Shown here one piece after another: positions 24,524 through 56,711 of a stretch of 56,800 nt of DNA. Within the stretch, counting starts at the first letter, position 1. Each line of letters opens with the position of its first letter. The translations under genes and the position numbers were made by a program. The DNA comes from a bacterium (lineage in GTDB: Bacteria > Verrucomicrobiota > Kiritimatiellia > CAIKKV01 > CAITUY01): contig JBAXDB010000002.1 in NCBI GenBank assembly GCA_037141135.1, positions 1 through 56,800 of the forward strand, written 5' to 3'. The notes under the pieces are model-generated. The model did not search any database, was not told the DNA's origin, and saw only the letters and a list, made by a program, of their open reading frames with translations.

Positions 24524-25243
24524 TCAGACATCCTTGAACCGGTAGCCGACGCCACGCACGGCCTCGATGCAATCCGCATACGAGCCAAGTTTCTTGCGTA
24601 AGCCAACCATCTGGACGTCCACGGCTCGCTCGGTTACGGCGATTTCCTCACCGCGCACGGCGTCGAGAATCTGCTGACGGTTCAGCACTCTGCCGGGGCG
24701 GCTGGCGAGAAAATGTAGCAGATGAAATTCCGTCACTGTGAGACTTTCGATGGGCTTACCTCTGGCAAGTACTTGAAAACGGCTTGGGCTGATCTCTAGG
24801 TCGCCCGCCCGCAGTTCACCCTTCTGATTATAGACGTGAACCTGCTGTCGGCGCAGTACCGCGCGGATCCGGGAGATTAGAATTTTGATGCCGAACGGCT
24901 TGCCCACATAGTCATCCGCCCCGAGCTCCAAACCCAAGATGATATCCGATTCCTCACCCTTGGCTGTGATCATGATGATCGGAATGTCAGCCGTTGCAGG
25001 GTCTCTTTTCAATTTCCGGCATACCTCGAGCCCGCTCATTCCCGGTAACATGAGATCAAGAAGAATGAGGTCGGGCTTCTTCTGGGCCACCACATTCAGC
25101 CCCCCCTCACCGGACATGGCTGAGACGACTCCAAAGCCTTCACGTGTCAGGTTAAAGTTCACCAGCTCGAGAATGTCTTTCTCGTCGTCGACAACCAGTA
25201 TCTGTTTTTGAGCCACGGCCATAGGACATCCCACGCAATCCAT
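24524..25243 (-). CDS. OmpR/PhoB-family response regulator (PhoB-like paralog 1)
   Basis: 239 aa. The receiver domain has ILVVDDE...DLILLDLMLPG...; the winged-helix domain has ...LTVTEFHLLHFLASRPGRVLNRQQILDAV...ERAVDVQMVGLRKKL...VRGVGYRF. The likely true start is MAVAQKQ (complement of 25220-25222). Confidence 0.85.
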   Translation of the reverse strand: MDCVGCPMAVAQKQILVVDDEKDILELVNFNLTREGFGVVSAMSGEGGLNVVAQKKPDLILLDLMLPGMSGLEVCRKLKRDPATADIPIIMITAKGEESDIILGLELGADDYVGKPFGIKILISRIRAVLRRQQVHVYNQKGELRAGDLEISPSRFQVLARGKPIESLTVTEFHLLHFLASRPGRVLNRQQILDAVRGEEIAVTERAVDVQMVGLRKKLGSYADCIEAVRGVGYRFKDV

Positions 25244-36332: not shown

Positions 36333-36339
36333 GGCCGCA

Positions 36340-39638: not shown

Positions 39639-39705
39639 TATCAGGTTGAATTCCCACGTTTATCTAGCAGTTCAACGGTATTATTTTGCCGCAGGGAGAG
39701 AAACA

Positions 39706-39933
39706 ATGACCGCAGTGCCCGAATATATAAAGGTGGGCAGACAGGGAATCGTGATTAAAGGCGCACGGATACCCGCCTCGTTCTTCCGCCATTTGATGCC
39801 TGGCAAGAGTTTCGTCGTTCTTGCCGAGGGAGATCGACGCCTGATGCACGTCCGTGCCAAAGACGTCAAGGCCCTCCAGCGCGCCTATCGCGATTATATA
39901 CGCAATCTTGGAAGTCGCCGCACCAGAAACTAA
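39706..39933 (+). CDS. Small basic protein, unknown (weak AbrB/MazE-like resemblance)
   Basis: 75 aa from ATG 39706, preceded by GGGAGAG at 5-nt spacing. KVGRQGIVIKGARIPASFFRHL loosely resembles SpoVT/AbrB swapped-hairpin motifs. Confidence 0.4.
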   Translation: MTAVPEYIKVGRQGIVIKGARIPASFFRHLMPGKSFVVLAEGDRRLMHVRAKDVKALQRAYRDYIRNLGSRRTRN

Positions 39934-39998
39934 TAGACCTCTAACGAGGGGCGAATAGTCGTTGGAGATAATGCGTCACCTGAAAGGAATTTGGGACA

Positions 39999-40373
39999 AT
40001 GCAAAACATTCTTATTCGATCATGGAAACAAGTGGTGGTGGTCTTGCTGCTCATCGGTGTGGACCTGGCCGTGAGTCTGCCGATCATGGGGGCAACGTAC
40101 CGGCCGTTCCAATGGATGACCATTGCTTCGACAAATACGCCCGTGCTCTACCCGGTGATCCAGAATCTGTCCTTTGTGGGCGGCAAACCCTATCTGGCCG
40201 TTCAGACAACCAACGGCCAGTCTTGTGTGTTGCAGTGCAACACCAACCTGAAAAACTCAACCGGATGGTTCAATGTGGTGACCATAACGGCAACCGGTCG
40301 GGTGATACATCTGACGGATACGAATCCCATTCCCCGCAGTTCCGCGTTCTACCGCGTAACAGGCTCATTCTAA
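39999..40373 (+). CDS. Small secreted or anchored protein, unknown
   Basis: 124 aa. It has an N-terminal hydrophobic segment (VVVVLLLIGVDLAVSL) and a beta-rich remainder ending ...AFYRVTGSF. Confidence 0.5.
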   Translation: MQNILIRSWKQVVVVLLLIGVDLAVSLPIMGATYRPFQWMTIASTNTPVLYPVIQNLSFVGGKPYLAVQTTNGQSCVLQCNTNLKNSTGWFNVVTITATGRVIHLTDTNPIPRSSAFYRVTGSF

Positions 40374-40380
40374 GAACGAC

Positions 40381-43300: not shown

Positions 43301-43482
43301 CCGCCATACTGGGCGGCAGTCAGGCACCCGCACCGGCCGCGGTTCCGGCAAGCGTTTTTCAAACTCCACCAACCGATTCGCCCGTGCTGCAAGCGCACAT
43401 TCAGACATTGGATCGAATCCTGGCAACACACGAGGATGTCATGCAAGCCCTGTTCACCCAAGTCGGCACACACGCCCCATAA
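40381..43482 (+). CDS. Second type I PKS-like synthase: KS plus divergent acyltransferase/hydrolase-like domain
   Basis: 1033 aa. See the KS and AT entries below. The C-terminal tail carries the helical motif LQAHIQTLDRILATHEDVMQALF, which parallels LKAHEQVMQRLLDTHQRVMAAAL located after the AT of the large synthase. Confidence 0.85.
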   Translation: MNAPLPDIALVGMAGIYPGAPVLSRLWNNIVAKIETVSDAPASWNAGHFHDPTAGGDNNTHTYCQRGGFIEAFAEFDPLDFGIMPGSVDGSDPGHFLTLRVAKEALADAGYLERPFDRQRTGVIIGHGSYPHRGMTSSGAYGEAERFVELLRTIVPELPPQVIDTLVSRIKSRLPPFTPDTCPGLISNVLSGRIANRLNLMGPNYLVDAACASSLIALDAGMRELVAGRCDMMLVGGAQENTNAGVFIVFSMLGALSKRGKLRPFDKNADGTLLGEGVGFAVIKRLADAERDGDRIYAVIKGLGLSSDGQGQAFLVPRLEGEVTAMERAYQAAGFSPSTVDLVEAHGTGTAVGDRIEIQAMTRIFGARNGQLPRCAVGSVKSMISHTIPASGMASLFKTSLALFHKVLPPTLCEEPNSELGIDESALYINTESRPWIHGKAYPRRAGVNAFGFGGINSHVVLEEYAPDCAKGTLLRDWPCELVTVRGASRLAVSEKARVLRQGLAKLPSETALRDIAFTLNSLDKPYTAPCCLTIVAESSQDLNSKLDAAVAALEDPERTAIQERQGIYYFDKPLAREGKLAFLLPGEGAQYAGMLGDLCIHFDEVRSWFDRADRAFIDRGRSPLPSQIVFPSPHLTQPEQQGVEAALWSMEYALPLVATADSALYHLLLVLGVRPQAIAGHSTAQDLALEAAAFADCTTPANVMDKPVIEDRVIEQWVRDLVPAAQLLSVGASEPARIAQLAAESAGALHVAMDNCPNQGILCGSPEAIAAARATLESEGALCQFLPFDRGYHTPMYRPICDRIEQTAGTYEDRIPKIPVYCTTTGKRLPETPAEIRRIMIDQWADPIRFRETIETMYSDGVRLFLEVGPRGNLTGFVDDILAGRDYSAIPCNLASRGGLLQLHHALAQLCAHGVEVSLDRLYSQRRPSQLAMDATGLTSTASPRRRPIKLKMDIPLITLDETDRRELRDQLTAILGGSQAPAPAAVPASVFQTPPTDSPVLQAHIQTLDRILATHEDVMQALFTQVGTHAP
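40393..41775 (+). other. KS domain of the second synthase (catalytic Cys-His-His retained)
   Basis: IALVGMAGIYPGA...; LVDAACASS (Cys211, nt 41011-41013); VEAHGTGTAVGD; GSVKSMISHTIPASG; NAFGFGGINSH. Confidence 0.85.
42118..43020 (+). other. Divergent AT-like domain of the second synthase
   Basis: FLLPGEGAQY replaces GQGSQ. IAGHSTAQDLAL (Ser683, nt 42427-42429) has GHSxA in place of GHSxG. FDRGYHTPM stands where AFHS is expected. Confidence 0.65.
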
Positions 43483-43496
43483 TACTGCTAACCAAT

Positions 43497-44540
43497 ATGA
43501 AAAATCACTCCTTACGGTTGTCTTTCTGCCTCTTGCTTCTTCCTTTCCCCGCGCTCAGTTCCACTCCTCACTCCGCGTTTGATCGATACTCGGTCATCCT
43601 CACGCGCATGCCCTTTGGCAATGAGTCTTCCGCCGCCCCACTAGCCACCAGCGCTACTGTCGTGACCCCGCCTCCCCTGGAGAGCTTCACCAAGAACCTC
43701 AAGATGTGCGCCATCACCCGCAACCACTTTGACGGTAAAATTCAGATCGGTATCGTCAATATGATCACCCGGAAAAGTTATTTCCTCCACGAAGGTGCCT
43801 CGGAAGACGGCATGGAACTCGTCCGGGCCGATTTCGACAACGAAAAGGCGCTGTTGAAAAAGAACACCGAGGCAGTATGGATGGATATGACGTCGGCGAC
43901 GGCAGCTACACCCGTGGTCACCTTTGGACCGCACGGCATGCAAATTATCCCGCCTTCACCAGTAGCGCAGCCTGTACTTTCCACAGGGGTAAATGATAAT
44001 TCCACCGGCAACGCGGATAACCGCGCGGGCTCATCCTCCTCAAGGTCTTTAGACGCGGAGTTTCAACTAAAAATGGGGCAACCTCAGGTGGAGCGTACCA
44101 TTTCCCGAGAAAGTTCCGAAATGATTCCCCCTCCTACGCCTGTGGGGGCGGGCGGTTTTGGGCGGGTGAATAACAGTCCCGTGGTTGCATCCACGACCAA
44201 GGGTCAGACGGCGACGGCAAGTTCTGCGGCGCTGGCCTTAAACCAGAGCATGGCGAGCGCGTTGGAAGTGGCCGCGCTGATTCCGCCCCCGGATCCAATT
44301 CCGGCTCAAGTGGCCGCGACGCCCGGTTCTGCCTCGGTGAACAATGATGTGAGGGTTATGGATTACACTCAAGAAGTGCCTCAGTTAACCGCCGCGTATC
44401 TGCAGAAACAACTTCAGGATTATCAGATGGAGTTAATCCGAGCGCAAGGCGCAAAAGGCCCGCCATTACCCATTGTATTGACTCCCTCGATGGACGCCCA
44501 GTTGGTCTCCGAGGGCGTCCTGCCCCCCAGTGCGCAGTAA
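43497..44540 (+). CDS. Secreted protein, unknown; Ser/Thr/Ala/Pro-rich low-complexity middle
   Basis: 347 aa. It has a signal peptide (LSFCLLLLPFPALSS) and is the last gene of the megasynthase operon. Confidence 0.55.
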   Translation: MKNHSLRLSFCLLLLPFPALSSTPHSAFDRYSVILTRMPFGNESSAAPLATSATVVTPPPLESFTKNLKMCAITRNHFDGKIQIGIVNMITRKSYFLHEGASEDGMELVRADFDNEKALLKKNTEAVWMDMTSATAATPVVTFGPHGMQIIPPSPVAQPVLSTGVNDNSTGNADNRAGSSSSRSLDAEFQLKMGQPQVERTISRESSEMIPPPTPVGAGGFGRVNNSPVVASTTKGQTATASSAALALNQSMASALEVAALIPPPDPIPAQVAATPGSASVNNDVRVMDYTQEVPQLTAAYLQKQLQDYQMELIRAQGAKGPPLPIVLTPSMDAQLVSEGVLPPSAQ

Positions 44541-44756
44541 GAAGGATTCAGGACTCCAGGTCCACTATCCCTGACAGACGTAACCGGCATACGTTGCAAC
44601 AGACCCTTGCCTGTTTTTCAACTAATCAATTTTTCACGCACCACTTTTCAATTCGCAATGGCGCCGGACTAGTGTCTGCTCCATCGAACGAACACGAGGT
44701 GACACGGGGTCACTTTCACCAAAAAAGCCGACCCGTAAGTCCCCGGATCGTTCCGG

Positions 44757-44791
44757 CCGGAGTGGCCGCAAGGCTGCTCCGGTTCTTTTTT
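44757..44791 (+). terminator. Rho-independent terminator
   Basis: The stem ccggag..ggcc / ggc..ctccgg closes a GCAA tetraloop and is followed by ttcttttttt. It lies about 215 nt downstream of the 44540 stop. Confidence 0.65.
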
Positions 44792-44882: not shown

Positions 44883-45830
44883 ATGACATCATTCCTTCGC
44901 CTGCTCGCATTTCAATTCCTGGCTATGACGGCCCTGGTTCAAGCCGCCGATGACAAGAATATCATTGCCGAAGTGACCGGGCGGTTTCACCCCACAAAAC
45001 CGGCCGTCATGATGAACTATGACGTGACCTATGTGCTGTTCAATATCAGTTTGAAACGCGTGGCCGAGGCCACCCTTAAAGCAACCGAGGGGGTGTGGTG
45101 CAGCAACCTCTCCACCGGAGGCGTCCCCGCCTGCCTGATCGACTTTCAGGTGGAGTCCCCTCGAACCGGTGACGCCGCCGATGACAATATCCGCCTGTTT
45201 AAGCGAACCGTATCGGTGCTGACCATGCCGGAGCTGAAGATTATCACTTATGCCAAGCATAACGATGAATTCATTAAACCGTTCTTCAGCCCAGGGCGCC
45301 GCATGAGCTATGTCGAAATCTACAATTTCGAGGCCGGCACTCCCACCTACCGGCATCATGATCTTTTCTCAGGCACCGTGGAGACGAATCTCCCGGGGAT
45401 GGCCGATCTCGCCAAGCAAAGCACCGAAGTGGCCAACGTATTCCAGACCTTGTATGCCGCCTATAGCGGGCAACCGGCGCCGCACCACGCCCGCGCGAAC
45501 ACGGTTCACTTCAATGTGGATGGCACCGTCAGGACTTTTGATTTAAAGATGAAGAAGGGACGGGTATCAGCCCTTGCTTTACCCGGGAAATTCAGCGCTT
45601 TGTATGCTGATATCCAGCCTGAAAAGGACAGTGATGGCCGTAATGAAAGTTTTTCCATGTGGTGTGTTCCATTCCGTCAGTTCGCGCATGACACCTCTGA
45701 TCCGGAACTGAAGAAACTCGCGAAAACGAGTTTGGAATGGTCCATGTTGCCTCTATCTGGCGAATATGGTCTGTTTCTCGGAGCCATTCAGTGTACCCTC
45801 ACCAAAATTTGTGTCCAGCCCCAGGGATAA
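44883..45830 (+). CDS. Secreted protein, unknown
   Basis: 315 aa. Signal peptide MTSFLRLLAFQFLAMTALVQA. No recognisable motif. Confidence 0.55.
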   Translation: MTSFLRLLAFQFLAMTALVQAADDKNIIAEVTGRFHPTKPAVMMNYDVTYVLFNISLKRVAEATLKATEGVWCSNLSTGGVPACLIDFQVESPRTGDAADDNIRLFKRTVSVLTMPELKIITYAKHNDEFIKPFFSPGRRMSYVEIYNFEAGTPTYRHHDLFSGTVETNLPGMADLAKQSTEVANVFQTLYAAYSGQPAPHHARANTVHFNVDGTVRTFDLKMKKGRVSALALPGKFSALYADIQPEKDSDGRNESFSMWCVPFRQFAHDTSDPELKKLAKTSLEWSMLPLSGEYGLFLGAIQCTLTKICVQPQG

Positions 45831-45906: not shown

Positions 45907-46593
45907 ATGGTTAAACAACACATCTTCATTGTCGAGGATGAGCCGGATATTGCCGACCTGCTGTCGTATAATCTGACCCGCGAAGGGTTCAAAGTCAGTC
46001 TGGCTGCCCGGGGCGATCGGGCTGTGAGCGAGATCCCCCTTCGCAAACCCAACCTGATCCTTCTGGACCTGATGTTACCCGGAATGGGAGGAATCGAGAT
46101 TTGCCGTTTGCTGAAGGCCAAACCCGAGACGGCAGGAATTCCCATTATTATGGTAACCGCCCGGGGCGAAGAAACGGACATCATCGTAGGGTTGTCGATG
46201 GGCGCCGAGGATTACATCGTCAAGCCCTTCAACATCAAGATCGTTCTGGCACGGATAAAAGCCGTGCTGCGCCGCCGGGATACGGTTCCCACCGGAATGG
46301 ACCAAACCCTCCATGTCCATGACATCACTATCAATCCTGGCCGTCATGAAGTGTTATGCGGAAAGAGGGCGCTGGAGTTAACGGCCTCCGAGTTCCGGCT
46401 GATTCATTTTCTTGCCCGGCGGCCCGGCTGGGTTTTCACGCGCGAGCAGATCGTGGACGGCGTAAAAGGAGTTGATTACATCGTCACGGATCGCGCCGTG
46501 GACGTCCAGATGGTCTCCCTGCGGAGAAAACTCGGAAAGCATGGGGATTGCATCGAGACGGTACGGGGAGTTGGCTACCGCTTAAAAGAGTAA
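45907..46593 (+). CDS. OmpR/PhoB-family response regulator (PhoB-like paralog 2)
   Basis: 228 aa. IFIVEDEPDIADLL...NLILLDLMLPG...; LTASEFRLIHFLARRPGWVFTREQIVDGV...DRAVDVQMVSLRRKL...VRGVGYRL. It aligns along its full length to the 24524..25243 protein. Confidence 0.85.
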   Translation: MVKQHIFIVEDEPDIADLLSYNLTREGFKVSLAARGDRAVSEIPLRKPNLILLDLMLPGMGGIEICRLLKAKPETAGIPIIMVTARGEETDIIVGLSMGAEDYIVKPFNIKIVLARIKAVLRRRDTVPTGMDQTLHVHDITINPGRHEVLCGKRALELTASEFRLIHFLARRPGWVFTREQIVDGVKGVDYIVTDRAVDVQMVSLRRKLGKHGDCIETVRGVGYRLKE

Positions 46594-46670
46594 AGGGTCA
46601 ACCTCCCCTCTCACAAACTCCTAACGGGCGCCCAACACCTCGCTAATGTCTGAATGATAGCATTTCATTC

Positions 46671-49055
46671 ATGACAAATACTCATACCCCTCACACACAC
46701 ACACTGGACCGCCATGATCTCAAGCGGATTCGCGGCGGCCTGGGGATGAGCGAAACAGGCGATTCTATCGAGTCGCTGCCCTTTGGAGTGGGTGATGTCA
46801 CCGCGGGTGCCGAAAATGAACTCCTGACAATCACCCACGGCCCCCGGGATCAGGTTGACCTGGCGCGCAGCGTGGAGGAATCCAACTATTTCAAGAATCT
46901 CACACGCCGCGCCGCCACAGGAGACGCCCCAAAACGGCTGGTGCGGGGAATTGAAGACTACCTCTCCGATAATCCGGATAACGCCTGGGAAAACAGTTGG
47001 GTATATTTTCCCGCCGATCTTATAACCCCTTATGCTCGTGAGGTGTTCGACGGGGATCTTTTTGCCGACAAAAGGGAACGATGCGCCCGCCGATCGGATG
47101 CCAGCCGTTTTGAAGTTGTACGCAACGGTCTTCGTTGCATCCGCATACCGGTGAGTTATCTGCTCAAGCTAGCCCTGGCCGATGCCATCAGTGTCGGGCA
47201 GGGTCGGCATCCCTCAATCCGTTGCACGGGCGAGAAACTCATGAAGTGTTTCCTCAGCGATAACACCTCGCCTGAAACGCTCTCGTTCCACACCGTCGGC
47301 CCGGACTCCGGGACCGGTCTGGGCCGCGCGCTGGCATCGGAGACCCAGCGGCGGTTGTTACTTGTGCAGTTATTGACGATGTACGCCAATGAAAAGTTCG
47401 AACTGCGTTCACGGGGCCAGGAAACACAGGTATGTCTGGCGCCGCAAACCCCGTTGCGACAGAAGCGCCTGAACGAGCTTGTCGCGGATTCATTTTACCG
47501 CGACCTCTTCATGAGCCCGTGTCTGTCGGGCTGGGACAAAGGCGAATCCAAGCATCAGTACATGATCCTGTGTCATGAGGTATTATCGCGGAGCCGCCTG
47601 AACACCATGGAAAAACTGCGCGAGTGCGGCATTCTCGCGCGTGACTTGATTATCCTGCCAACTGTCTCCAACACCAGCCTCGCCAACAATGGCACGCATA
47701 TCAGCCTGGGTAGTCGCCACCTGACCGCCTTGATGAATTCAGGTACTCCCGATTTCACGGCTGAGGACGAAAAGCGTGTCGGGGATCTCGTGGTGAAGAT
47801 CGTCGAGCACTTTCTACCACTCTTCGTAGGAACCTACACCGCCGCTCCCCATCGTCTGGACTTCCGGGATTTTCATCCGGAGACGGTGTTGGGATTTCTG
47901 CCGCACGAGCTGGATTTCACCCACCTTCGCATGCTGTGGCGGCGCTGGAAAGGCAAGGCCGACCTTAAATGCTTCGGCTTCCCGCTTACGCCCTTCGGTC
48001 CACGCGGGCTGGACCGGGTCCTCGGCACGGTTCTGGGGCTGCGCGGCGACTGGATTCCCGACCAGCGTCTGATCGATTATCTTGTGTCCCCGCTCAGCAC
48101 GGATAATAGTCCCGCCCTGGACGGAACCCTCGGTAACGATCAGCGGCTCAAACGGGATCTTTCCGAAATGGGCGTGTTCGATCAGCGCATGTCATCCTAC
48201 TCACTCTACCGCCAGCGCCACTTTGCCAGCATGGGGTTCTGTGGGTTTGAAGGACGCCACTACAGCCAGTTTGCCAGCCTTGATCGAGATATGGCCGCCG
48301 CCACAGATATGCAGCGGCTCATCACGGCGCTGGCCTACAAGTATGTCCTCAGCGGTCAAGTGACACATGCGGACATACCCGACACACCCGAGGTCGAGAG
48401 CGAACGGCGGCAGACCTTTTTCGGGAGCGCCATCGGCATTCCCACTTTTTTTGTCGGAACCCGGACCCCGAACCAGTTCCTTAAGAGGATTCTGAGCCGG
48501 ACAGCCAGCACGCGAGACAGTCAACGTTACCCAGGTCGGACACGTGTCCAGCATATCGAGTACCGTCGCGCGCTGGTGACCCTGCTGGAGCAGGATGGCG
48601 CCGACCTGATCGAAGCCTTTAGGCTGACGGACACGATTCGCGATTTGAAACAGCGACTGAAACCCGCGAACAATGGCTCCGCCCTGGAGTCACTTCTCAA
48701 CGGCATCCTGAATGAGACGGGCGCGTCCACTCCGCTACGATCTTCTGCCGAGACATTTAACACGGCCACCGAGCGTTACTACCGCGGTCCACTGCTTAAA
48801 AACTTTGTCGGTGAAGCCCTGGATCTGTTCGCCCGCGATCTTAAGGATCTCATTGATCGCTCGGCAACGGGTAACAACCAGGACCTTGCGGCACTGCAAA
48901 CGGTGCTGAACGGGGAAGAACCGGTCTCGTTCTTAAAGGCCGTGAGGGAGAACGTGCTGGCAGGCAAGGCCTCACAGTCGGTTGTGATCAAACTAATCGG
49001 CCTCCTGCTGCTGGTGATCCGCCACCATTGTGAATGCAACGGAGGTCAGCCATGA
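46671..49055 (+). CDS. Large soluble protein of unknown function (no family recognised)
   Basis: 794 aa, uninterrupted. There is no P-loop and no TM segment, except a hydrophobic C-terminal stretch (VVIKLIGLLLLVI). No obvious SD precedes the ATG. The stop overlaps the next start (ATGA at 49052-49055). Confidence 0.6.
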   Translation: MTNTHTPHTHTLDRHDLKRIRGGLGMSETGDSIESLPFGVGDVTAGAENELLTITHGPRDQVDLARSVEESNYFKNLTRRAATGDAPKRLVRGIEDYLSDNPDNAWENSWVYFPADLITPYAREVFDGDLFADKRERCARRSDASRFEVVRNGLRCIRIPVSYLLKLALADAISVGQGRHPSIRCTGEKLMKCFLSDNTSPETLSFHTVGPDSGTGLGRALASETQRRLLLVQLLTMYANEKFELRSRGQETQVCLAPQTPLRQKRLNELVADSFYRDLFMSPCLSGWDKGESKHQYMILCHEVLSRSRLNTMEKLRECGILARDLIILPTVSNTSLANNGTHISLGSRHLTALMNSGTPDFTAEDEKRVGDLVVKIVEHFLPLFVGTYTAAPHRLDFRDFHPETVLGFLPHELDFTHLRMLWRRWKGKADLKCFGFPLTPFGPRGLDRVLGTVLGLRGDWIPDQRLIDYLVSPLSTDNSPALDGTLGNDQRLKRDLSEMGVFDQRMSSYSLYRQRHFASMGFCGFEGRHYSQFASLDRDMAAATDMQRLITALAYKYVLSGQVTHADIPDTPEVESERRQTFFGSAIGIPTFFVGTRTPNQFLKRILSRTASTRDSQRYPGRTRVQHIEYRRALVTLLEQDGADLIEAFRLTDTIRDLKQRLKPANNGSALESLLNGILNETGASTPLRSSAETFNTATERYYRGPLLKNFVGEALDLFARDLKDLIDRSATGNNQDLAALQTVLNGEEPVSFLKAVRENVLAGKASQSVVIKLIGLLLLVIRHHCECNGGQP

Positions 49056-50068
49056 CCGTCCATCATTACGTGGATCATCGCGACTCCCGCGGGATTCCCG
49101 AAAAATTTTTCGGCGACCCGATTGTCTCATTTCTCTACTCACATGTCCGTGAAGATGCCGGCTGGCTGTTCAAGGCCCTGACCTCATCCCGACTGACAGA
49201 ACTGCTGGGAGCGTTACATTTCGATATCCGCCCCGGGTGTCCTTATCGAATGCGCCGTGATCTGAAGAAAACCCTTGGTATCGACTTTAATGAGTGCGTT
49301 GATCCTCCAGAATCTCTTGATACTCCCCGCAAAGTGTTTGAACGCAGGATTCGCTACTGGGATTGTCGCCCCATGGACCCCAGACCCTCCGCAATCAGCT
49401 CTCCGGCTGATGCACGTCTTCTGGTAGGCTCGTTTCAACGAACGTCAGACCTTTATTTGAAGGACAAGTTTTTCTGTTATGAAGAAATGTTCGGGAAGGG
49501 AAAATTGGTCTGGTATGATGCGTTTCATGGAGGTGATTTTGCCGTGTTGCGCTTGACGCCCGACAAGTACCACTATAACCATGTTCCCGTAAGCGGCGTG
49601 GTGCGAGACATTTACGAAATTGACGGCGTGTTTCAATCATGTCACCCCGCCGTTGTCATCGCCCAGGCCACTCCCCACTCCAAGAACCGGAGAATGGTGA
49701 CTATTATCGACACAGACGTCGAACACGGAACACAGGTGGGATTGGTGGCCATGATCGAGGTGGTCGCGCTCATGATAGGTGACATTGTCCAATGCTATAG
49801 TTCCAAATGCTATCAGAAGCCAACCCCCCTCCATATCGGTATGCCAGTCGAGCGAGGCTGCCCGAAAAGCCTGTTCCGCCCCGGCAGTTCCACGGTCGTG
49901 CTTATTTTCCAGAAGGAGCGTGTTCGATTCTGTGACGATATTCTCACGAACCTCCGGCGTACCAACCTGAGCAGCCTCTACAGCGCGGCATGGGGTGAAT
50001 CGTGGGTAGAAACGGACGTGCCCGTTCGAGCCACGATCGCATGGGCTATTCAAGGAGGGAACCTATGA
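49052..50068 (+). CDS. Phosphatidylserine-decarboxylase-family (pyruvoyl-dependent) protein
   Basis: The track ORF starts at 49034; I prefer ATG 49052. SSPADARL..., RLTPDKYHYNHVPVSG (compare LSPxDYHRxHxPxxG), KNRR, VVALMIGDI and ERGCPKSLFRPGSSTVVLIF align with the PSD blocks. The self-cleavage motif G-S-S (nt 49883-49891) stands where canonical G-S-T is found. Confidence 0.75.
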   Translation: MTVHHYVDHRDSRGIPEKFFGDPIVSFLYSHVREDAGWLFKALTSSRLTELLGALHFDIRPGCPYRMRRDLKKTLGIDFNECVDPPESLDTPRKVFERRIRYWDCRPMDPRPSAISSPADARLLVGSFQRTSDLYLKDKFFCYEEMFGKGKLVWYDAFHGGDFAVLRLTPDKYHYNHVPVSGVVRDIYEIDGVFQSCHPAVVIAQATPHSKNRRMVTIIDTDVEHGTQVGLVAMIEVVALMIGDIVQCYSSKCYQKPTPLHIGMPVERGCPKSLFRPGSSTVVLIFQKERVRFCDDILTNLRRTNLSSLYSAAWGESWVETDVPVRATIAWAIQGGNL

Positions 50069-51117
50069 TTGTGACCTTGATTGTGATGTTGATGGCACTC
50101 TGCCTGTTTGCGCTTTTCGTCTGGTCATTTCACCATCTGCCGGGAGAGAAATGGCAAATACTGGCTACTTTCCCGACACATAGGGATGAAACAGGCATCT
50201 GGCACGGCGTCAACCTGACCTATTATGGTTTTTTCAACGCATTGGGCGTTGCGGTCGCGGTGGCCGTAACCCTTTTTCTGGCAGGCGCTGCGGGACTGCC
50301 CCTGACACAATTGATGTGGATCATCGCGGCGCTCCTGACGGTCTGCATTCCCGCTTCAAAAATCATCAACCGCATTGTGGAAGGCCATTGGCATGGATTC
50401 ACTATTGGCGGAGCGGCGTTTACCGGGATGGTGCTTGGCCCCTGGCTGGCTGGGGGTATCTTGCAACTGGGGCAAAAAACGGGAGGTGGCTCACAGGCGA
50501 CCCTGTTCGTGCTGGCGGCCATAGCCACGGCCTATGCCCTGGGCGAAGGGATTGGCCGACTCGCCTGCATCAGTTTCGGCTGTTGCTATGGCCGCCCCCT
50601 GGCGAATTGTCCCTCCTGGCTTCAGACTCTCTTTAGTCACTGGTTTGTCATATTCGAAGGGCATTTGAAAAAATCATCTTATGCACACGGATTCGAAGGA
50701 CAACGGCTTATTCCCGTGCAGGCCATAACGGCAATCATCTCAAGCACAGCGGGGTTGACCGGAGTGGTGCTGTTTCTGATTGGCCGACCCATGCTTGCCT
50801 ACGTTCTGACGATCATCATCACACAACTCTGGCGGTTCGCATCGGAGTTTCTGAGGGCCGACTACCGGGGAACAGGTCGAATTTCAACCTATCAGTGGAT
50901 GGCCCTTGCGGGAACAGTGTATACGATGGCCTTCAGCCTGCTATGGCATCACGCCCCACAACCAATTCTGGATGTGACTCGCGGGCTGGCCATGGTGTGG
51001 TCACCCGGCGCAATTCTTCTGATCGAGGCTCTTGCCGCCATCGTTTTCGCACGAATGGGGATTAGCACGGTGACGAGCGCCCGGATCAGTTTCGATCTCA
51101 AGCGGCAGAAACCCTAA
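50065..51117 (+). CDS. Lgt (prolipoprotein diacylglyceryl transferase)-family polytopic membrane protein, divergent subfamily
   Basis: The track ORF starts at 50002. I prefer ATG 50065, which is preceded by AGGAGGG and forms an ATGA overlap. The protein has about 7-8 TM segments. GRLACISFGCCYGR (nt 50554-50595) matches the spacing of the Lgt signature GRxGNxxNGExWGR, but Cys replaces the conserved Asn and Glu. Confidence 0.6.
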   Translation: MIVTLIVMLMALCLFALFVWSFHHLPGEKWQILATFPTHRDETGIWHGVNLTYYGFFNALGVAVAVAVTLFLAGAAGLPLTQLMWIIAALLTVCIPASKIINRIVEGHWHGFTIGGAAFTGMVLGPWLAGGILQLGQKTGGGSQATLFVLAAIATAYALGEGIGRLACISFGCCYGRPLANCPSWLQTLFSHWFVIFEGHLKKSSYAHGFEGQRLIPVQAITAIISSTAGLTGVVLFLIGRPMLAYVLTIIITQLWRFASEFLRADYRGTGRISTYQWMALAGTVYTMAFSLLWHHAPQPILDVTRGLAMVWSPGAILLIEALAAIVFARMGISTVTSARISFDLKRQKP

Positions 51118-51210
51118 CCAATTTCTAACTTGCCGCTCATTTTCTTCTTACAAGGTTTCTTTCTAATGGCCCCCATGAACCGACAACTAACAACAAGGAG
51201 AAACAAAGAT

Positions 51211-52395
51211 ATGAAGAAAGTAGTAGCAGGATTAGTTTTGATGGCGGGTGTGAGTGGGACGTGCCTGGCGGCTGAAAGCAATGCGCCGGCGGCAACTCCG
51301 GCTCCAGCCCCGAAGACCTGGGCGGACTCGATCACACTCAAAGGCGACTTGCGGTATCGTTATGAGACTATCAATGACGACTCCAAGAAAAACGCAAGCA
51401 AGGAAACCTATACGCGTCAACGTGACCGGGTTCGCGCCAGGCTCGCCGCTGAAGCCAAGGTGAATGACCAAACGAAGGCGGTGGTTGGTTTTTCAACCGG
51501 CGGCAATGACCCTATCTCTGGCAACCAGACCCTCGGTGACGGTGGGCAAAAGAAGGACATGAAACTTGACCTGGCTTATATTGATTACAGCTTTCTGGGC
51601 GATGCAACGGAAACAGAAGCGCACGCCTATGCCGGCAAGATTAAAAATCCCTTCATCACCATGAACGACGACCTGGTATGGGATAGTGACTTGTCTCCTG
51701 AAGGAATCGCCTTCAAAGGCCAGACGGGCAACGACAAGGTGACGGCTTACGGAAATGCAGGCTATATCTGGATCCAGGAGCGCGATAGCAAGGATGCGGC
51801 TCAGTTGTTAGCCGGTCAGGGTGCAGTGAAATTCCAGTTCATTCCCGAGGTGGCTTTGACCGTTGGCGCCAGTTACTACGGTTTCCAGAACCTCAAAAGT
51901 TATGACGTGATTGACTGGGAAGGCAAAAACAACGGCTACGGCAATACCACCAAAAAAGGCACAGTCAGTGGTGGCACCACCAACAAGGCCTGGGCCACGG
52001 AATACACTCCCGTGGTGTACTTTGCCTCGCTCGACATGTGGGTCGCCGGGTTGCCGGTTTCCATCTTCGGCCAGGAACTCTCCAATTCCGACGCCTCAAA
52101 ACTTGACAAGGGACACATGTATGGCGTCTCGCTGGGTAAAGCCAAAAATCCTGGCACGTTTGAAGTCGGTTACAGTTATACCGAACTCCAGAAGGATGCC
52201 ACTTTGGGTATGTGGACGGATTCCGATCGTTGGGGCGGCGGCACTGATGGCAAAGGCCAGAAAGTCTATGCCAAGTATCAAATCAAGAAGAACCTCCAGC
52301 TTGGTGCCACTTACTTTACGGACGACAAGGGCATCGCTTCCGGCAAGCCGACAAATTATGACCGGATGCAACTGGATCTGGTTGCGGCGTTTTGA
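51211..52395 (+). CDS. Outer-membrane porin (context suggests phosphate-regulated)
   Basis: The track ORF starts at 51130. I prefer MKKVVAGLVLMAGVSGTCLAAES (ATG 51211), which is preceded by AGGAG. The sequence has a beta-strand-rich alternating pattern and ends ...QLDLVAAF. It lies directly upstream of pstS. Confidence 0.65.
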   Translation: MKKVVAGLVLMAGVSGTCLAAESNAPAATPAPAPKTWADSITLKGDLRYRYETINDDSKKNASKETYTRQRDRVRARLAAEAKVNDQTKAVVGFSTGGNDPISGNQTLGDGGQKKDMKLDLAYIDYSFLGDATETEAHAYAGKIKNPFITMNDDLVWDSDLSPEGIAFKGQTGNDKVTAYGNAGYIWIQERDSKDAAQLLAGQGAVKFQFIPEVALTVGASYYGFQNLKSYDVIDWEGKNNGYGNTTKKGTVSGGTTNKAWATEYTPVVYFASLDMWVAGLPVSIFGQELSNSDASKLDKGHMYGVSLGKAKNPGTFEVGYSYTELQKDATLGMWTDSDRWGGGTDGKGQKVYAKYQIKKNLQLGATYFTDDKGIASGKPTNYDRMQLDLVAAF

Positions 52396-52400
52396 GGATG

Positions 52401-52442
52401 TGAGACGTGAAGCGTAAGACGTGAGATGTTAAACGTGAAAAA
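52401..52442 (+). repeat. Three tandem 14-bp direct repeats containing ACGTGA
   Basis: The units are tgagacgtgaagcg, taagacgtgagatg and ttaaacgtgaaaaa. The ACGTGA cores sit at 52405, 52419 and 52433, so the period is exactly 14 bp. Confidence 0.7.
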
Positions 52443-52449
52443 GGATAAA

Positions 52450-53274
52450 ATGAAAAAGATAAATAAACTGATGACGATGATGGCGGTGGCGGGAATGGGT
52501 GTCGGAGCGGCGGTGGCCGGTGATGCCAATTCTATTGTGGTGGATGGGTCAACGACGGTGGGCCCTGTGGCAAAGGCATTTGCCGAGTATTACATGGGTA
52601 AACACCAGGGGGTGAACATTACAGTGAGCGAATCCGGCAGCGGGAATGGGGCCAAGAGTCTCATCAACGCAGCTTGTGATGTCGCCACGATGTCGCGTCC
52701 GATGAAGAACTCGGAAAAGAAAGCCGCCCAGGAAGCCGGCGTGCTCGCGATTGAGAATGTCGTGGCCCTCGATGGCCTGGCAGTCATTGTGCACCCCTCA
52801 AATTCCCGCGGTAATCTGACCATTGAGCAGATCCGGGATATCTACACGGGCAAGATCACCAACTGGAAAGAACTGGGCGGGGCTGACCAGAAGATTGTGG
52901 TGATCAGTCGAGATACCAACAGCGGCACCTATGAGAGTTTCAATACCCTGGTGCTGAAGGATGCCAAACTGACAGGCGGAGCAGAGTATGTCGGCAGTGG
53001 TGGTGCCATCCGCCAGCGCGTGCTGAGCACCGAAGCAGCCATTGGCTATGTCGGACTCGCCTTCACAGAAGGGGTCAAGACGTTGCAGGTGAATGGAGTC
53101 GCTCCTACGCCCGAAACGGTCATCGCGAAAACCTATCCCATCGCCCGCCCGCTGTTCATGTATACGAATGGTCGGCCAAAAGAAGGTACGGCCCTGTATG
53201 ACTTCGTGAACCTGAGCAAGACCGCGGAAGGCAAGCGCATCATCGAAGATGTCGGTTATGTCCCGGTGAAGTAA
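52450..53274 (+). CDS. pstS: Phosphate ABC transporter substrate-binding protein PstS
   Basis: VDGSTTVGPVAKAFAEYY...SGSGNGAKSLINAACDVATMSRPMK...ISRDTNSGTYESF... are PstS-family blocks. I prefer the start MKKINKLM (52450) over the track start at 52426. Confidence 0.85.
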   Translation: MKKINKLMTMMAVAGMGVGAAVAGDANSIVVDGSTTVGPVAKAFAEYYMGKHQGVNITVSESGSGNGAKSLINAACDVATMSRPMKNSEKKAAQEAGVLAIENVVALDGLAVIVHPSNSRGNLTIEQIRDIYTGKITNWKELGGADQKIVVISRDTNSGTYESFNTLVLKDAKLTGGAEYVGSGGAIRQRVLSTEAAIGYVGLAFTEGVKTLQVNGVAPTPETVIAKTYPIARPLFMYTNGRPKEGTALYDFVNLSKTAEGKRIIEDVGYVPVK

Positions 53275-53365: not shown

Positions 53366-54538
53366 ATGATTAACGATCGTGTCATTGCAAATTCTGCTGC
53401 CGCCGGGCGCGATGGCTCATCGCTTCTGTTGAGCCATCGCGCCCGGCGGCAGCAGCGTTTGCTGGGGTTTCTGGGATCAGGCTTCCTGCTTGCCGTAACC
53501 TCCCTTTCGATGTTTGCGGTCTTGTTTATTTTTTATTTTATCGCACGTGATGCCCTGCCATTCTTTCAGTTGCAGGGCTTCAAGCAGTTTTTTACCAGTA
53601 CGCATTGGTATCCTTCGGCGGCAACCCCTGAATTCGGATCGCTTGCCATTTTTGTGGGGAGCGGACTGGTGACCCTTGGGGCGGCGCTTGTCGCCGTCCC
53701 TCTCGGCATCACAGCGGCTGTATGCCTGAGTGATGTTCTTCCTTTTTCGGTCAGACAGGTTGTCAAGCCGGTGATTGAGATCCTGGCAGCTATTCCGTCG
53801 GTCGCTTATGGTTTTTTTGCATTGGTCGTGTTTGCCCCTCTCCTACAGGAGCGTGGGGGCCATATTCTTCAGGTGGCCGGCTGGATCATCGGCGCGCCAG
53901 TGGCCGTGCTCGTCATCGTAGTGGTCAGTGACCTGTTGACCGACCGGATGTCCACGGCCCACCGGCCCTGGGCGCGGTGGGCGTTGATGGCTGTCTTGTC
54001 CGCGGCCGCTTTCTGGGGGCTATGGAAACTCGGCTTGTCATTGGGCGGAATATCAGTCACCAGCGGCACCAACGCACTGAACGTTTCGATCATCCTGGGT
54101 ATCATGGCCTTGCCAACCGTCGTGAGTGTAGCCGAAGATGCGATTCAGGCCACAGGCCGAGAATTGCGGGAAGGTAGTTACGCGCTGGGCGCCACCCGGT
54201 CTGAAACCATTCTGAGAACAATCCTTCCAGCGGCCAGCAGCGGCATTATGGCCGCCGTCATTTTGGGTGTGATGCGCGCCGTAGGCGAAACCATGGTGGT
54301 GTGGATGGCCTCGGGTAACGCCGCCCAGATCCCCCAGCCCTGGTACAATATGCTCCAACCGGTCCGCACCCTCACGGCCACCATCGCAGGGGATATGGGC
54401 GAGGCCGACCAAGCCACCGGATCCTCACGTTTCCACGTCCTTTTCGCAATGGCTCTCTGTCTTCTAGTGTTTTCTTTTGTCTGCAATCTGGTCAGTGAAT
54501 GGGGCGTGAGACGCACCCGCCGGAAAGTGGGTAAATAA
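53366..54538 (+). CDS. pstC: Phosphate ABC transporter permease PstC
   Basis: 390 aa, polytopic. It has the BPD_transp-type permease core, sits as the first permease after pstS, and carries an N-terminal extension. Confidence 0.8.
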   Translation: MINDRVIANSAAAGRDGSSLLLSHRARRQQRLLGFLGSGFLLAVTSLSMFAVLFIFYFIARDALPFFQLQGFKQFFTSTHWYPSAATPEFGSLAIFVGSGLVTLGAALVAVPLGITAAVCLSDVLPFSVRQVVKPVIEILAAIPSVAYGFFALVVFAPLLQERGGHILQVAGWIIGAPVAVLVIVVVSDLLTDRMSTAHRPWARWALMAVLSAAAFWGLWKLGLSLGGISVTSGTNALNVSIILGIMALPTVVSVAEDAIQATGRELREGSYALGATRSETILRTILPAASSGIMAAVILGVMRAVGETMVVWMASGNAAQIPQPWYNMLQPVRTLTATIAGDMGEADQATGSSRFHVLFAMALCLLVFSFVCNLVSEWGVRRTRRKVGK

Positions 54539-54541
54539 CCC

Positions 54542-55888
54542 ATGCGCCTGGATACCCGTAAAATGCTGGATCGCTCGTTCACCGCTTCAGGAGTGCTGGC
54601 GATTATATTGATGACCTCCGCTCTGATCATTCTGCTGGCCCCGATGTTTGTCCGGGGCATAGGGGCTATTTTCTTTATAGGAACGGTGGAGCATCGGCGA
54701 CTGATGCTGGAAAAGTTTGAGCGGGGGAACCGTCCGGCGATCGAGACCGAGGTGGCTTCCGCACGTACGGCACGCGAACCGGTCTTCCAGATGGTCGCGG
54801 AGTTTGAAAAGCAGCTGGAGACAATGCCTTCCGCCGAACGTCGGAAGGTTATGCCATCCTTCAAGGAACTGAAAAAGGCCCTTAATGCCCTGTTGGGCCC
54901 GGCACCCGGCGCACAACGGCCCATGCTGATGCGGGACCAGTTCGGCCAAACCCGATGGGACCGGGCCCAGGTGAAACTTGAGCGCGTTCTTTTCCGGGAG
55001 GAGTGGGACTACAGCCATACCGAACGTGGGGGCGTGAAAATACTCAAACCCAGGGTCAATGATTTTGCCGGCACCGCGTTGGAGCCGCTGTTCCCCTATC
55101 TTGCCGCCAACCTGGACAAGATGTTATTGCCCCATAGAACGGTTTATTGGCAGTTTTTAACGGATGAATCTTATGACTCGCATTTTTTCGGGGGGATATG
55201 GCCGGAATTATTAGGGACATTGTACCTGACGGTCGGGGCCATGCTCTTCGCAATCCCGATGGGGTTGATTGCGGCAATCTACCTGACCGAATATGCGCCG
55301 GAAAATTCTTTTGTAAGTTTTCTGCGGACCTGCATCAGCACACTGGCCGGAGTACCCAGCATCGTCTTTGGACTGTTCGGCCTCGCCTTTTTCATCAATA
55401 CCCTTGGTGTGTCGCATTCTAAAAGCGTGCTGGTCGGCTCCATGACCCTGGCCCTGATGATCCTTCCCACCGTCATTCGGGCATCAGAAGAGGCCATTCT
55501 CGCTGTGCCCCGAACCTATAAGGAGGCAGCTCTGAGTCTGGGCGCCGGGCGCTGGCACACCGTTATGACCATTATTCTCCCAGCCGCATTGCCGGGAATT
55601 CTCACCGGTATCGTGATCAGCATGGGCCGGGCGGCCGGAGAGACGGCGCCCATCATTTTCACCGCGGCCGTCAGCATCGGCAAACCCCTAGCCCTGTGGC
55701 AGGTGTTCAGCCACCCGACACCGGCACTTTCGTGGAACATTTACAATCTGGCTACCGAGCATGAGGCGATGGATGAAATCCGTCATGTTCAGTACGGCCT
55801 TGTGCTGGTGCTGGTCACGCTGGTACTTTTGTTAAATTTGGCAGCCATTCTAATGAGGGCCCGGGTCGCCAAGCGATTGAGAGGTTGA
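54542..55888 (+). CDS. pstA: Phosphate ABC transporter permease PstA (long form with a large periplasmic loop)
   Basis: 448 aa. TM1 is followed by a hydrophilic loop of about 190 aa, then the permease core (...[29 protein letters not shown]...). Confidence 0.8.
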
Positions 55889-55901: not shown

Positions 55902-56711
55902 ATGAATCAATTTGAGCGCGCGATGGATAAGGACCGGACAGACAAAACCCCCGACGGGGCAGCCCATGTTCAGACCTCTGATTTTTCGGTTTATTACCGT
56001 GCCAATCATGCTGTCAAAAATGTTCACCTGTCTTTTGGCAGCGGCTTGGTTACGGCCATTATCGGCCCCAGCGGCTGCGGCAAAAGCACATTACTGAGGG
56101 CAGTGAACCGGATGAATGATCTGGTGCCGGGTTGCCGGACGGATGGCGAGTTACTGTTCGATGGGCAAGACATCTATTCGCCCAGTATTGACGTCGTCAC
56201 CCTGCGGCGTCGGATCGGGATGGTGTTCCAGAAGCCAAACCCGTTCCCGAAAACGATTTTTGACAATGTGGCCTATGGACCGCGCCTGCACCGGCAGGTC
56301 ACCCAGAATGAATTGGCGGAGATTGTTGAGCGCAGTCTGACCGGAGCGGCCTTATGGGACGAGGTCAAAGATCGCCTGCAGCAGAATGCTCTGGGGTTGT
56401 CCGGGGGGCAGCAACAGCGGCTATGCATCGCCCGGGCGCTCGCCGTGGATCCTGAAGTCCTGTTAATGGACGAACCTACCTCGGCGCTGGATCCACGGGC
56501 GACGCTGAAGATCGAGGACCTGATTGATGATCTACGAGGAAAGTACACCATCATCATTGTGACACACAATATGCAGCAGGCTGCCCGGGTTTCGGACTTT
56601 ACGGCATTTATGTATGAGGGTTCAATGATTGAGTATGGGCAAACGACGGCTATGTTTACCAAGCCGAAAGAAAAACAGACGGAAGATTATATTACCGGCC
56701 GGTTCGGGTGA
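55902..56711 (+). CDS. pstB: Phosphate ABC transporter ATP-binding protein PstB
   Basis: Walker [13 protein letters not shown] signature LSGGQQQRL and Walker [13 protein letters not shown]. The length and N-terminal region are typical of PstB. Confidence 0.9.

Follow-up and report, generated by a model that had tools for sequence, protein, structure and literature searches.

When phosphate is scarce, one of the main responses of microorganisms is to replace their phospholipids by phosphorus-free lipids, which are also used as environmental biomarkers. In the known Pho remodelling systems (PlcP with Agt/Pgt, BtaAB, and OlsBA/OlsF), phosphorus-free lipids replace phospholipids under the control of PhoB (see also PMC11181052). 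In phosphate-limited Desulfatibacillum alkenivorans, phosphatidylethanolamine (PE), phosphatidylglycerol (PG) and cardiolipin (CL) are replaced almost fully by glucuronosyl glycerolipids and by new sulfur-containing aminolipids named 'butyramide cysteine glycerol' (BACys), the latter requiring low phosphate for their induction (Ding et al. 2024; PMC11181052). The BACys lipids are built on the same diacylglycerol (DAG), acylether glycerol (AEG) and diether glycerol (DEG) cores as the phospholipids, and their head-group ion at m/z 205.064 (C7H13O3N2S+) was read tentatively from second-stage mass spectra (MS2) as a butyramide linked to cysteine; no genes were proposed for them (PMC11181052). Here we analyze a stretch of 56,800 nt (hereafter, the window; contig JBAXDB010000002.1 of assembly GCA_037141135.1) from a bacterium of the Kiritimatiellia (Verrucomicrobiota), which contains three adjoining genes, ORF-A, ORF-B and ORF-C. 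Judging from sequence comparisons, we consider it quite likely that this triad makes a phosphorus-free thioether aminolipid under Pho regulation, and we lean slightly toward the view that it constitutes a BACys-type pathway as specified below. Pho-controlled lipid remodelling is already a known kind of process; what is new in our proposal is the set of enzymes and the route.

The three genes lie on the plus strand (Table 1) and encode proteins of 794 (ORF-A), 338 (ORF-B) and 350 residues (ORF-C). They are joined by stop/start overlaps of the sequence ATGA at 49052-49055 (A/B) and 50065-50068 (B/C), and a Shine-Dalgarno sequence is found 6-7 nt before each overlap start (GGAGG at 49041-49045 for ORF-B and AGGAGG at 50053-50058 for ORF-C). 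The mechanical list of open reading frames (ORFs) gave longer starts for two of the genes, ATG 49034 for ORF-B and GTG 50002 for ORF-C; in the family alignments, the proteins begin at the ATGA starts. A preliminary description of the locus, made from the sequence alone, had placed this ATGA-joined triad between a PhoB-like regulator and a porin-pstSCAB operon, and the coordinates, the overlaps and the domain matches confirm this arrangement.

We then analyzed the distribution of the triad by scanning one genome per species (185,579 species genomes). Gene A was found in at least 343 species, of which 80 were fetched, and it has about 2,900 homologues, all of them named 'hypothetical'. Searches with tblastn revealed that, with the exception of locus L059, all loci reaching at least 2.6 kb beyond A encode A, B and C on a single strand and in this order. 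About 60 genomes from at least six phyla preserve the order, and the complete unit is restricted to a few hundred of the 185,579 species genomes. In Geobacter pickeringii and Desulfonema ishimotonii, for instance, gene A is followed by genes of the phosphatidylserine decarboxylase (PSD) and LGT families with the same sizes as in the window. The carriers are mostly Thermodesulfobacteriota (Geobacter, Citrifermentans bremense, Trichlorobacter thiogenes, Syntrophobacter, Desulfococcus, Desulfonema, Desulfosarcina, Desulfomonile and Smithella), and further carriers were found among Nitrospirota, Nitrospinota, Acidobacteriota and SAR324 as well as in Ca. Brocadia sapporoensis. The closest relatives of the window's sequence come from metagenome-assembled genomes (MAGs) of Victivallales (78% identity) and Verrucomicrobiota (77% identity). 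The exception, L059:8001-10136, is the sole long locus without B or C within 8 kb; its gene A is matched only to residue 747 and may be a decaying copy. Co-occurrence of the three genes across genomes had been put forward in the preliminary description as a check of its proposal, and the synteny observed in at least six phyla shows that the triad is a conserved cassette and not a chance neighbourhood.

ORF-B belongs to the PSD family (PF02666; E = 4.8e-32; 111.7 bits for a gathering cut-off of 22) and aligns to the E. coli enzyme, Psd (PDB 7cnw and 6l06), with E = 4e-11. We aligned 57 sequences, which comprise the ORF-B family and E. coli Psd, and found that the conserved blocks of the E. coli enzyme are present in ORF-B: D90 (in sPaD), H144 and H147 (in YHYnH) and the cleavage site between G253 and S254 (in rPGSS). 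The cleavage motif, which reads FRPGSSTV in the window, is invariant across this ORF-B alignment, and the G-S-S processing site pointed out earlier is a property of the whole family; the invariant P-G-S-S of ORF-B stands against L-G-S-T in E. coli Psd. Since the Asp, His and Gly-Ser processing residues are all kept, ORF-B should self-process to a pyruvoyl enzyme. E. coli Psd is a self-cleaving pyruvoyl proenzyme, and ORF-B is likewise predicted to be a self-cleaving pyruvoyl decarboxylase of this family. ORF-B nevertheless falls below the cut-offs of all five PSD equivalogs of NCBIfam (best score 103.2 bits vs 371), and its first ~95 residues are unrelated to the N-terminus of E. coli Psd. Like Psd, it probably uses substrates with an alpha-amino-acid moiety exposed at the surface of the membrane, and we propose that its substrate would be a gamma-glutamyl or other amino-acid head group, in contrast to the phosphatidylserine (PS) used by Psd.

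ORF-C presents a nearly full-length match to the LGT family (PF01790; 35.4 bits for a cut-off of 24.9; residues 49-290 on model positions 9-237 of 240). Its AlphaFold2 (AF2) model contains nine long helices (pLDDT 91.8), and the top Foldseek match of this model is E. coli Lgt (5azb; probability 1.00, TM 0.56, 17% identity), the next match having a probability of only 0.18. The score of ORF-C against the Lgt equivalog NF000778 is 38.8 bits for a cut-off of 334, and a profile search of PDB sequences with the ORF-C family did not retrieve Lgt 5azb. We compared the motifs of the two proteins by local-mode hhalign, using an E. coli Lgt sequence identical to that of 5azb; the invariance figures refer to 61 sequences of the ORF-C family. 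The ORF-C motif GRLACISFGCCYGR aligned to GRLGNFINGELWGR of E. coli Lgt, and the family version of this motif is GRLACISFGCCYG(R/K). The residues that are kept and invariant are Y54 (Lgt Y26), R165 (R143), G176 (G154), R257 (R239), E261 (E243) and R264 (R246). In contrast, the E. coli signatures G142-RLGNFINGELW-G154 and H103GGL are not kept: N146, N149, E151 and L152, the first three of which make up the head-group filter of Lgt, are replaced by the invariant residues C168, F171, C173 and C174, respectively, and H103 is replaced by a variable V, L, I or T. The substitution of Cys for the important Asn and Glu, noted in the preliminary description, was therefore recovered (N146 and E151), together with the changes at N149 and L152.

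The known roles of these residues give a meaning to this pattern. In Lgt, whose active site is periplasmic, catalysis and donor binding depend on a network of R143, R239, E243 and R246; Y26 touches the glycerol of the donor, E151 is part of the PG-selecting first site and H103GGL is the proposed binding site of the lipobox peptide (PMC4728403). The residues kept and replaced indicate that ORF-C keeps the handling of the diacylglyceryl phosphate and has lost both lipoprotein handling and PG selection. Given that ORF-C shares the full-length Pfam match, the fold and the donor-binding residues of Lgt (5azb/5azc), a thioether-forming transfer of diacylglyceryl from a phospholipid is expected, with an acceptor that is probably a small thiol instead of a lipoprotein.

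The two proteins also appear to differ in their topology. Relative to the seven-helix Lgt, the AF2 model of ORF-C presents one extra transmembrane helix at each end, and the loops on the side of the active site contain on average 18.0 Lys and Arg residues (K+R) across the family, vs 1.9 on the opposite side. By the positive-inside rule, this bias predicts that the catalytic face of ORF-C is cytoplasmic, the reverse of Lgt. A cytoplasmic face fits a small-molecule acceptor as well as the cytoplasmic location of ORF-A, ORF-B, glutamate and cysteine. Cys3 zinc sites activate homocysteine in MetH and BHMT, and the C-x4-CC arrangement that takes the place of N146, E151 and L152 in ORF-C is reminiscent of these sites, which we consider as a lead only.

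The third member of the triad, ORF-A, had been described as a protein without any motif that could be placed, and our searches gave the same picture. ORF-A has no match in Pfam or NCBIfam, including Pfam searches at E <= 10 over 30 family members, and a profile search of PDB sequences (hmmsearch) was negative. The ORF-A profile was searched against 1.84 billion representatives and retrieved 879 proteins, the best 150 of which look like members of the same family or fragments of them. The AF2 model (pLDDT 77, pTM 0.85) was compared to the PDB with Foldseek: 10 of the 47 weak matches are glutamate-cysteine ligases (GCLs; 3nzt, 1v4g, 2d32, 2d33, 1va6, 3ig5 and 3ln7), and these are the only PDB matches with TMq > 0.2, none being significant. 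A fold search against BFVD was uninformative. ORF-A contains more than 100 invariant positions in an alignment of 30 sequences, many of them charged or His. Across 70 sequences, E48, E50, E107, H343, E527 and R529 are invariant, and the corresponding motifs E48-x-E50, E107, H343 (NNGTHISLGS) and E527-x-R529 sit on predicted beta-strands. In E. coli GshA, the residues that bind metal and ATP, which we take to be E27/E29, E67, H150 and E328/R330, follow one another in the same order. When the ORF-A profile was aligned with E. coli GshA by hhalign at low stringency, E48/E50 and E27/E29 were the only ones of these residues to be paired, and this pairing is not significant. D397-x-R399 was also considered as the E-x-R equivalent and was rejected, position 399 being variable in the 30-sequence consensus.

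ORF-A and the GCLs (GshA) may resemble each other weakly in fold and in the succession E-x-E, E, H, E-x-R. ORF-A differs from GCLs in that it is ~300 residues longer and presents large insertions and an all-helical C-terminal domain. The chemistry of GCLs, an amide between Glu and Cys, is the chemistry required for the BACys head group. We give somewhat more credence than doubt to the hypothesis that ORF-A is a GCL-like ATP-dependent ligase. Two side observations concern these proteins. One homologue of A (P0049), 743 aa in length and 80% identical to the query across 71% of it, additionally contains enoyl-CoA hydratase domains (PF00378 and PF16113) and may be a fusion or an artefact of assembly or gene calling. 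Separately, the Lactiplantibacillus plantarum plasmid CP096866.1 (L090) encodes at 832-2928 a glutamate-cysteine ligase followed directly by a gene of the gamma-glutamyl-gamma-aminobutyrate hydrolase family; this locus is unrelated to the window but combines Glu-Cys ligation with gamma-glutamyl-GABA chemistry.

To evaluate the link of the triad with phosphate starvation, all ORFs within 8 kb of A were clustered in 83 loci. We found pstSCAB or phoU in 25 of the 83 loci, which is far beyond chance for a gene set occurring once or twice per genome, and any Pho-type gene in 47 of them. After B and C, the most frequent companions of A were PhoR-like kinases (23 loci), a PHP+GT4 glycosyltransferase (18), PstS (14), PhoB-like regulators (14), PstB (13), PstC/A (12), PhoU (11), PIN-PhoH (8), polyphosphate kinase (6) and Zn-dependent phospholipase C (6). 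Some triads are directly embedded among Pho genes, as in loci L013 (pstSCAB-phoU-phoR-phoB-A-B-C) and L052 (A-B-dksA-C-pstSCAB-phoU).

We further searched for regulatory sites upstream of gene A. We looked at the 200 nt that precede A in 72 loci, and 14 of these contain on the coding strand the direct repeat [GT]TCA[CT]-N6-[GT]TCA[CT], which has the 11-bp period typical of Pho boxes. Numbers were much lower in the controls: 0-2 loci with other spacings, 3 on the reverse strand, 1/312 in coding controls and 0.3 +/- 0.5 in shuffled sequences. A similar site (TTCAT-N6-GTCAT) precedes pstS in four loci. The half-site is different in the window, where CTMAY-N6-CTMAY was found 6 times vs 0.69 +/- 0.86 expected, for a pattern that was defined post hoc from the sites before A and at 51114; because it was defined after these first two places had been seen, only the three other sites represent independent support. 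All six copies lie between genes and are oriented toward the gene that follows. In addition to the two places given in Table 1, they are located at 21860-21875 (-), 25292-25307 (-) and 39930-39945 (+), and the genes downstream of these other sites are a TPR/TonB-dependent-receptor/ExbB-TonB operon, a second OmpR-type regulator (24524..25243) and a small ORF followed by a KS-AT gene. This repeat may be the Pho box of the organism and may outline a wider regulon.

The best NCBIfam model of the PhoB-like regulator is TIGR02154 PhoB (240 bits, below the cut-off of 296). A strong terminator-like hairpin is present at 44755-44784, before orf315, and no convincing terminator was found from 44784 to pstB, where the one terminator-like site lies inside the coding region of ORF-C. 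Since convincing terminators are missing after 44784, the series orf315-phoB-A-B-C-porin-pstSCAB looks like a single Pho-type supra-operon. Overall, the linkage and the Pho-box-like repeats support the phosphate control of the triad that the preliminary description had suspected; binding of PhoB and induction at low phosphate are predicted.

Taken together, a thioether-forming transferase, a pyruvoyl decarboxylase and a possible Glu-Cys ligase under Pho control lead us to predict an S-linked glycerolipid with a decarboxylated dipeptide head group. The composition of this head group can be compared to that of BACys. We calculated m/z 205.0641 for C7H13O3N2S+, vs 205.064 reported. Loss of CO2 from gamma-Glu-Cys (C8H14N2O5S) gives C7H14N2O3S, which corresponds to a C7H13N2O3S head group once bound through sulfur. 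The product would be S-(1,2-diradylglyceryl)-N-(4-aminobutanoyl)cysteine, which would belong to the BACys class or be an isomer of the published structure; its N-(4-aminobutanoyl)cysteine head group is isobaric with the N-butyramide version drawn there, and C4H8NO and cysteine are the building blocks of both. It would be made from existing phospholipids and would constitute a phosphorus-free, zwitterionic and sulfur-containing aminolipid.

In the proposed pathway, ORF-A would use ATP to join glutamate, through its gamma-carboxyl, to the amino group of cysteine in an amide bond. On the cytoplasmic side of the inner membrane, ORF-C would move the diradylglyceryl from PG or PE to the thiol of cysteine, and the phospho-head group set free in this way (glycerol phosphate or phosphoethanolamine) would be available for the salvage of phosphate. 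The three invariant Cys of ORF-C stand where Lgt has residues for PG selection and for holding the lipoprotein peptide, and they may bind a metal, possibly zinc, activating the thiol of the small molecule. ORF-B would remove the alpha-carboxyl of the gamma-glutamyl moiety to yield 4-aminobutanoyl. The steps could occur in either order: the head group could be built first and lipidated last or, alternatively, cysteine could be lipidated first, then extended and decarboxylated on the membrane, as in the conversion of PS to PE. An exchange of head groups by an Lgt-type reaction would explain why the new lipids retain the cores of the phospholipids. The zwitterionic product could replace PE, and an anionic glucuronosyl lipid could replace PG and CL.

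This scheme agrees with the transfer of a diacylglyceryl group onto a small amino-acid-like acceptor and the decarboxylation of the head group that had been suggested previously, and both fit the BACys formula C7H13O3N2S. The amide bond, probably supplied by ORF-A, had not been anticipated. The earlier qualification of the route as undescribed holds for the genes, but the likely product probably corresponds to the BACys lipids already reported (PMC11181052). In the searchable literature, we looked for work on pairs of Lgt-like and PSD proteins, on Geobacter under phosphate limitation, on genes for BACys and on the formula and mass of its head group, and no publication was found that links the triad to a function or BACys lipids to genes. 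BACys is a lipid without published genes and the triad is a set of genes; they would share a low-phosphate setting and the head-group formula, and the glucuronosyl lipids on one side fit the GT4 neighbour on the other. D. alkenivorans itself belongs to the Desulfobacterales, an order where the triad is common. It is possible, at a likelihood just under even, that the triad is the missing route to the sulfur-containing aminolipids made by starved anaerobes, that it comprises three new enzyme activities and that the head group should be revised to 4-aminobutanoyl-cysteine. The three activities would be those of an inverted Cys3 homologue of Lgt acting on a small thiol, a PSD acting on a gamma-glutamyl head group and a ligase family of ~800 aa, and we hold this part equally tentatively.

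The genes found around the triad also connect it to lipid remodelling. The commonest non-Pho neighbour is the PHP+GT4 gene of the 18 loci mentioned above (e.g., L032:4453-6897 (-), L001:727-3138 and L045:13639-16092), which encodes a protein of ~814 aa whose PHP phosphoesterase-like N-terminus is fused to a glycosyltransferase of type GT4. In L044, L045 and L049, this gene separates B from C. The highest-scoring NCBIfam matches of the protein include GlcN-PG synthase, MGlcDAG synthase and the lipoteichoic acid (LTA) anchor proteins IagA/BgsA, all far below the cut-offs, and the protein is a candidate synthase of the glucuronosyl lipids that accompany BACys. The Zn-dependent phospholipase C of six loci belongs to PF00882. 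Directly after the triad, L012 (12379-13860 (+)) and five more loci of the Geobacter type encode a membrane protein with DUF2062 and a PF00882 phospholipase C, a further sign of phospholipid turnover. In addition, a 735-aa protein without Pfam or NCBIfam match recurs in six loci (e.g., L045:11283-13490 (+) and L012:15520-17694 (-)) and lies between B and the GT4 gene in L045. Many triad loci are similar to the known Pho remodelling systems in encoding a glycosyltransferase and a phospholipase C nearby, but none of the enzymes PlcP, Agt/Pgt, BtaAB and OlsBA/OlsF is found within the triad. Unlike these systems, the triad would pass the diacylglyceryl directly from a phospholipid to a thiol head group, without free diacylglycerol, and the head group would be an S-bound decarboxylated dipeptide.

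Several points weigh against a BACys-type pathway. The best fold match of ORF-A, 3nzt (TMt 0.41, E = 1.0, probability 0.30), is not significant, and the low-confidence parts of its model are the most conserved loops (307-338, 403-420 and 469-518). An alignment of GshA/GshAB was prepared from plasmid records (8 rows, of which seven were usable and one held a single residue), and its comparison to ORF-A by hhalign was not significant either (best local match of 399-429 to 332-362, P = 0.45). No sequence-profile relation of ORF-A to the GCL, GCS2 or GS families was found with Pfam, NCBIfam, PDB or hhalign. Regarding ORF-C, the cytoplasmic active site is deduced from the positive-inside rule as the single line of evidence, and the post hoc definition of the CTMAY pattern tempers the regulatory argument in the window. 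As for the product, the published BACys head group is itself tentative, being based on MS2 only, and the N-butyramide-cysteine that was drawn, whose amide nitrogen is terminal, is an isomer of the predicted product and not identical to it. Other isomers, such as beta-alanyl-homocysteine, share the same head-group formula. Finally, no orthologue from D. alkenivorans was among the named top matches of the homologue search with gene A or among the best 120 matches listed in a search with a Desulfobacterales profile, and the organism of the window is a bacterium of the PVC group and not a sulfate reducer.

Among the alternatives, the one that best withstands the evidence, although unlikely, is that the triad is Pho-regulated and makes a different phosphorus-free or phosphorus-sparing glycerolipid. 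S-diacylglyceryl-cysteine could for instance be converted to S-diacylglyceryl-cysteamine, or the product could be an O-linked analogue of the serine-to-ethanolamine conversion, with ORF-A playing a role other than amide formation (a kinase-like activator, a scaffold, a recycler of head groups or a lipid-transfer factor). Such a lipid would be compatible with the same synteny, the same Pho link and the same evidence on the chemistry of B and C, and the analogy with PS to PE is the simplest reading of a PSD-family enzyme; the non-significant fold assignment of ORF-A adds to its plausibility. Yet we know of no report of such a lipid, and with more than 100 invariant positions ORF-A looks like an enzyme. 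Moreover, the one known starvation lipid of the phylum with a thioether-compatible Cys head group also holds a C4 amide, which needs a ligase.

It is rather improbable that the locus encodes a phosphate-scavenging or small-molecule pathway in which ORF-C strips phospho-head groups or alkylates a soluble thiol, while A and B make a soluble thiol or amine (e.g., a decarboxylated gamma-glutamyl peptide) for redox or metal homeostasis. The Pho context is consistent with this possibility, as are the soluble thiols produced by GCL-like enzymes and the ability of the PSD family to act on soluble amino acids, the tryptophan decarboxylase PsiD being among the weak PDB matches to ORF-B. ORF-C, however, retains the residues with which Lgt holds diacylglycerol, including Y26 and the Arg pair, and an Lgt-type reaction leaves the diacylglyceryl on the acceptor, so that a lipid would be made regardless. 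The phospholipase C and lipid-type GT4 neighbours also speak against it.

We consider it more improbable still that ORF-C is a second Lgt that lipidates a dedicated protein, either exported or facing the cytoplasm, under starvation, with A and B modifying the substrate or the donor lipid. All characterised Lgt enzymes do lipidate protein cysteines (PMC4728403), and the Pfam LGT match of ORF-C exceeds the cut-off. On the other hand, H103GGL is absent, V, L, I or T occupying the aligned position of H103, and the predicted cytoplasmic active site would lie away from exported lipoboxes. No conserved gene bearing a lipobox accompanies the triad in the surveyed loci, and the PSD-family enzyme would be left without a role. 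Lastly, the notion that B and C are the housekeeping psd and lgt with ORF-A as an unrelated neighbour has two Pfam matches above threshold in its favor and is very improbable, as the preliminary description had anticipated for lgt: we rejected it on the scores, which are 3.6- to 8.6-fold below the equivalog cut-offs (38.8 vs 334 and 103 vs 371 bits), on the replacement of essential Lgt residues (H103, N146 and E151) along with the predicted inverted topology, and on the distribution of three translationally overlapping genes that form a unit in so few species genomes and track Pho genes.

The features surrounding the triad are listed in Table 1. The first gene after the triad encodes a porin whose start codon, ATG 51211, is preceded by AAGGAG. 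orf315 has no Pfam or NCBIfam match; the transcription unit may begin with this gene. In the Victivallales MAG of locus L003, the closest relative, a homologue (L003:4139-5089) immediately precedes gene A, and orf315 is not similar to the DUF3108-like gene found at this position in loci of the Geobacter type. Just upstream of this region, the window contains a cluster resembling polyunsaturated fatty acid (PUFA) synthases and type I polyketide synthases (PKS) at 26162-44540 (+). It encodes a 2642-aa ER(NMO)-KS-AT-ACP-KR-DH protein, a 1033-aa KS-AT protein, a phosphopantetheinyl transferase, a GNAT protein, a putative glycosyltransferase of the LA_3751/3752 family, a PMT_2/TMEM260-like glycosyltransferase and a 347-aa secreted protein, and one of the CTMAY repeats lies within it. 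This cluster may make another unusual lipid.

Table 1. Features of the triad locus in the 56,800-nt window (positions are those of the window).
Feature	Coordinates	Strand	Remarks
orf315, 315 aa, signal-peptide-like N-terminus	44883..45830	+	Function not assigned; membership of the transcription unit uncertain
PhoB-like OmpR-family response regulator	45907..46593	+	Response_reg and Trans_reg_C matches; 77 nt upstream of A
Candidate Pho box, CTCAC-N6-CTAAC, 11-bp period	46610..46625	+	46 nt before the start codon of ORF-A
ORF-A, isolated protein family, proposed ATP-dependent amide ligase (Glu + Cys type)	46671..49055	+	
ORF-B, PSD-family decarboxylase, predicted self-processing pyruvoyl enzyme	49052..50068	+	PF02666
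ORF-C, Lgt-fold membrane transferase, nine helices, Cys3 motif, predicted cytoplasm-facing active site	50065..51117	+	PF01790
Four tandem repeats, CTAAC/CTAAC/CTCAT/CTTAC, 11-bp period	51114..51151	+	Candidate Pho box of porin-pstSCAB
Outer-membrane porin (Porin_5)	51211..52395	+	PF16930, E = 1.6e-41
pstS, high-affinity phosphate transporter	52426..53274	+	
pstC, high-affinity phosphate transporter	53366..54538	+	
pstA, high-affinity phosphate transporter	54542..55888	+	
pstB, high-affinity phosphate transporter	55902..56711	+	

For a class of sulfur- and nitrogen-containing lipids of anaerobes that was reported in 2024 without genes, this cassette represents a concrete and directly testable candidate. 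Since the triad is carried by Geobacter, syntrophs, sulfate reducers, Nitrospira, anammox bacteria, Acidobacteria and members of the PVC group, and amounts to some 3,000 protein clusters and at least 343 species-level genomes, the lipid may be far commoner in sediments and soils than a single culture suggests. Lgt is pursued as an antibiotic target and, to our knowledge, the Lgt fold is known only for protein lipidation. If our proposal is true, this fold would have been flipped in the membrane and reused for the exchange of lipid head groups, and a large orphan protein family, that of ORF-A, would gain a function.

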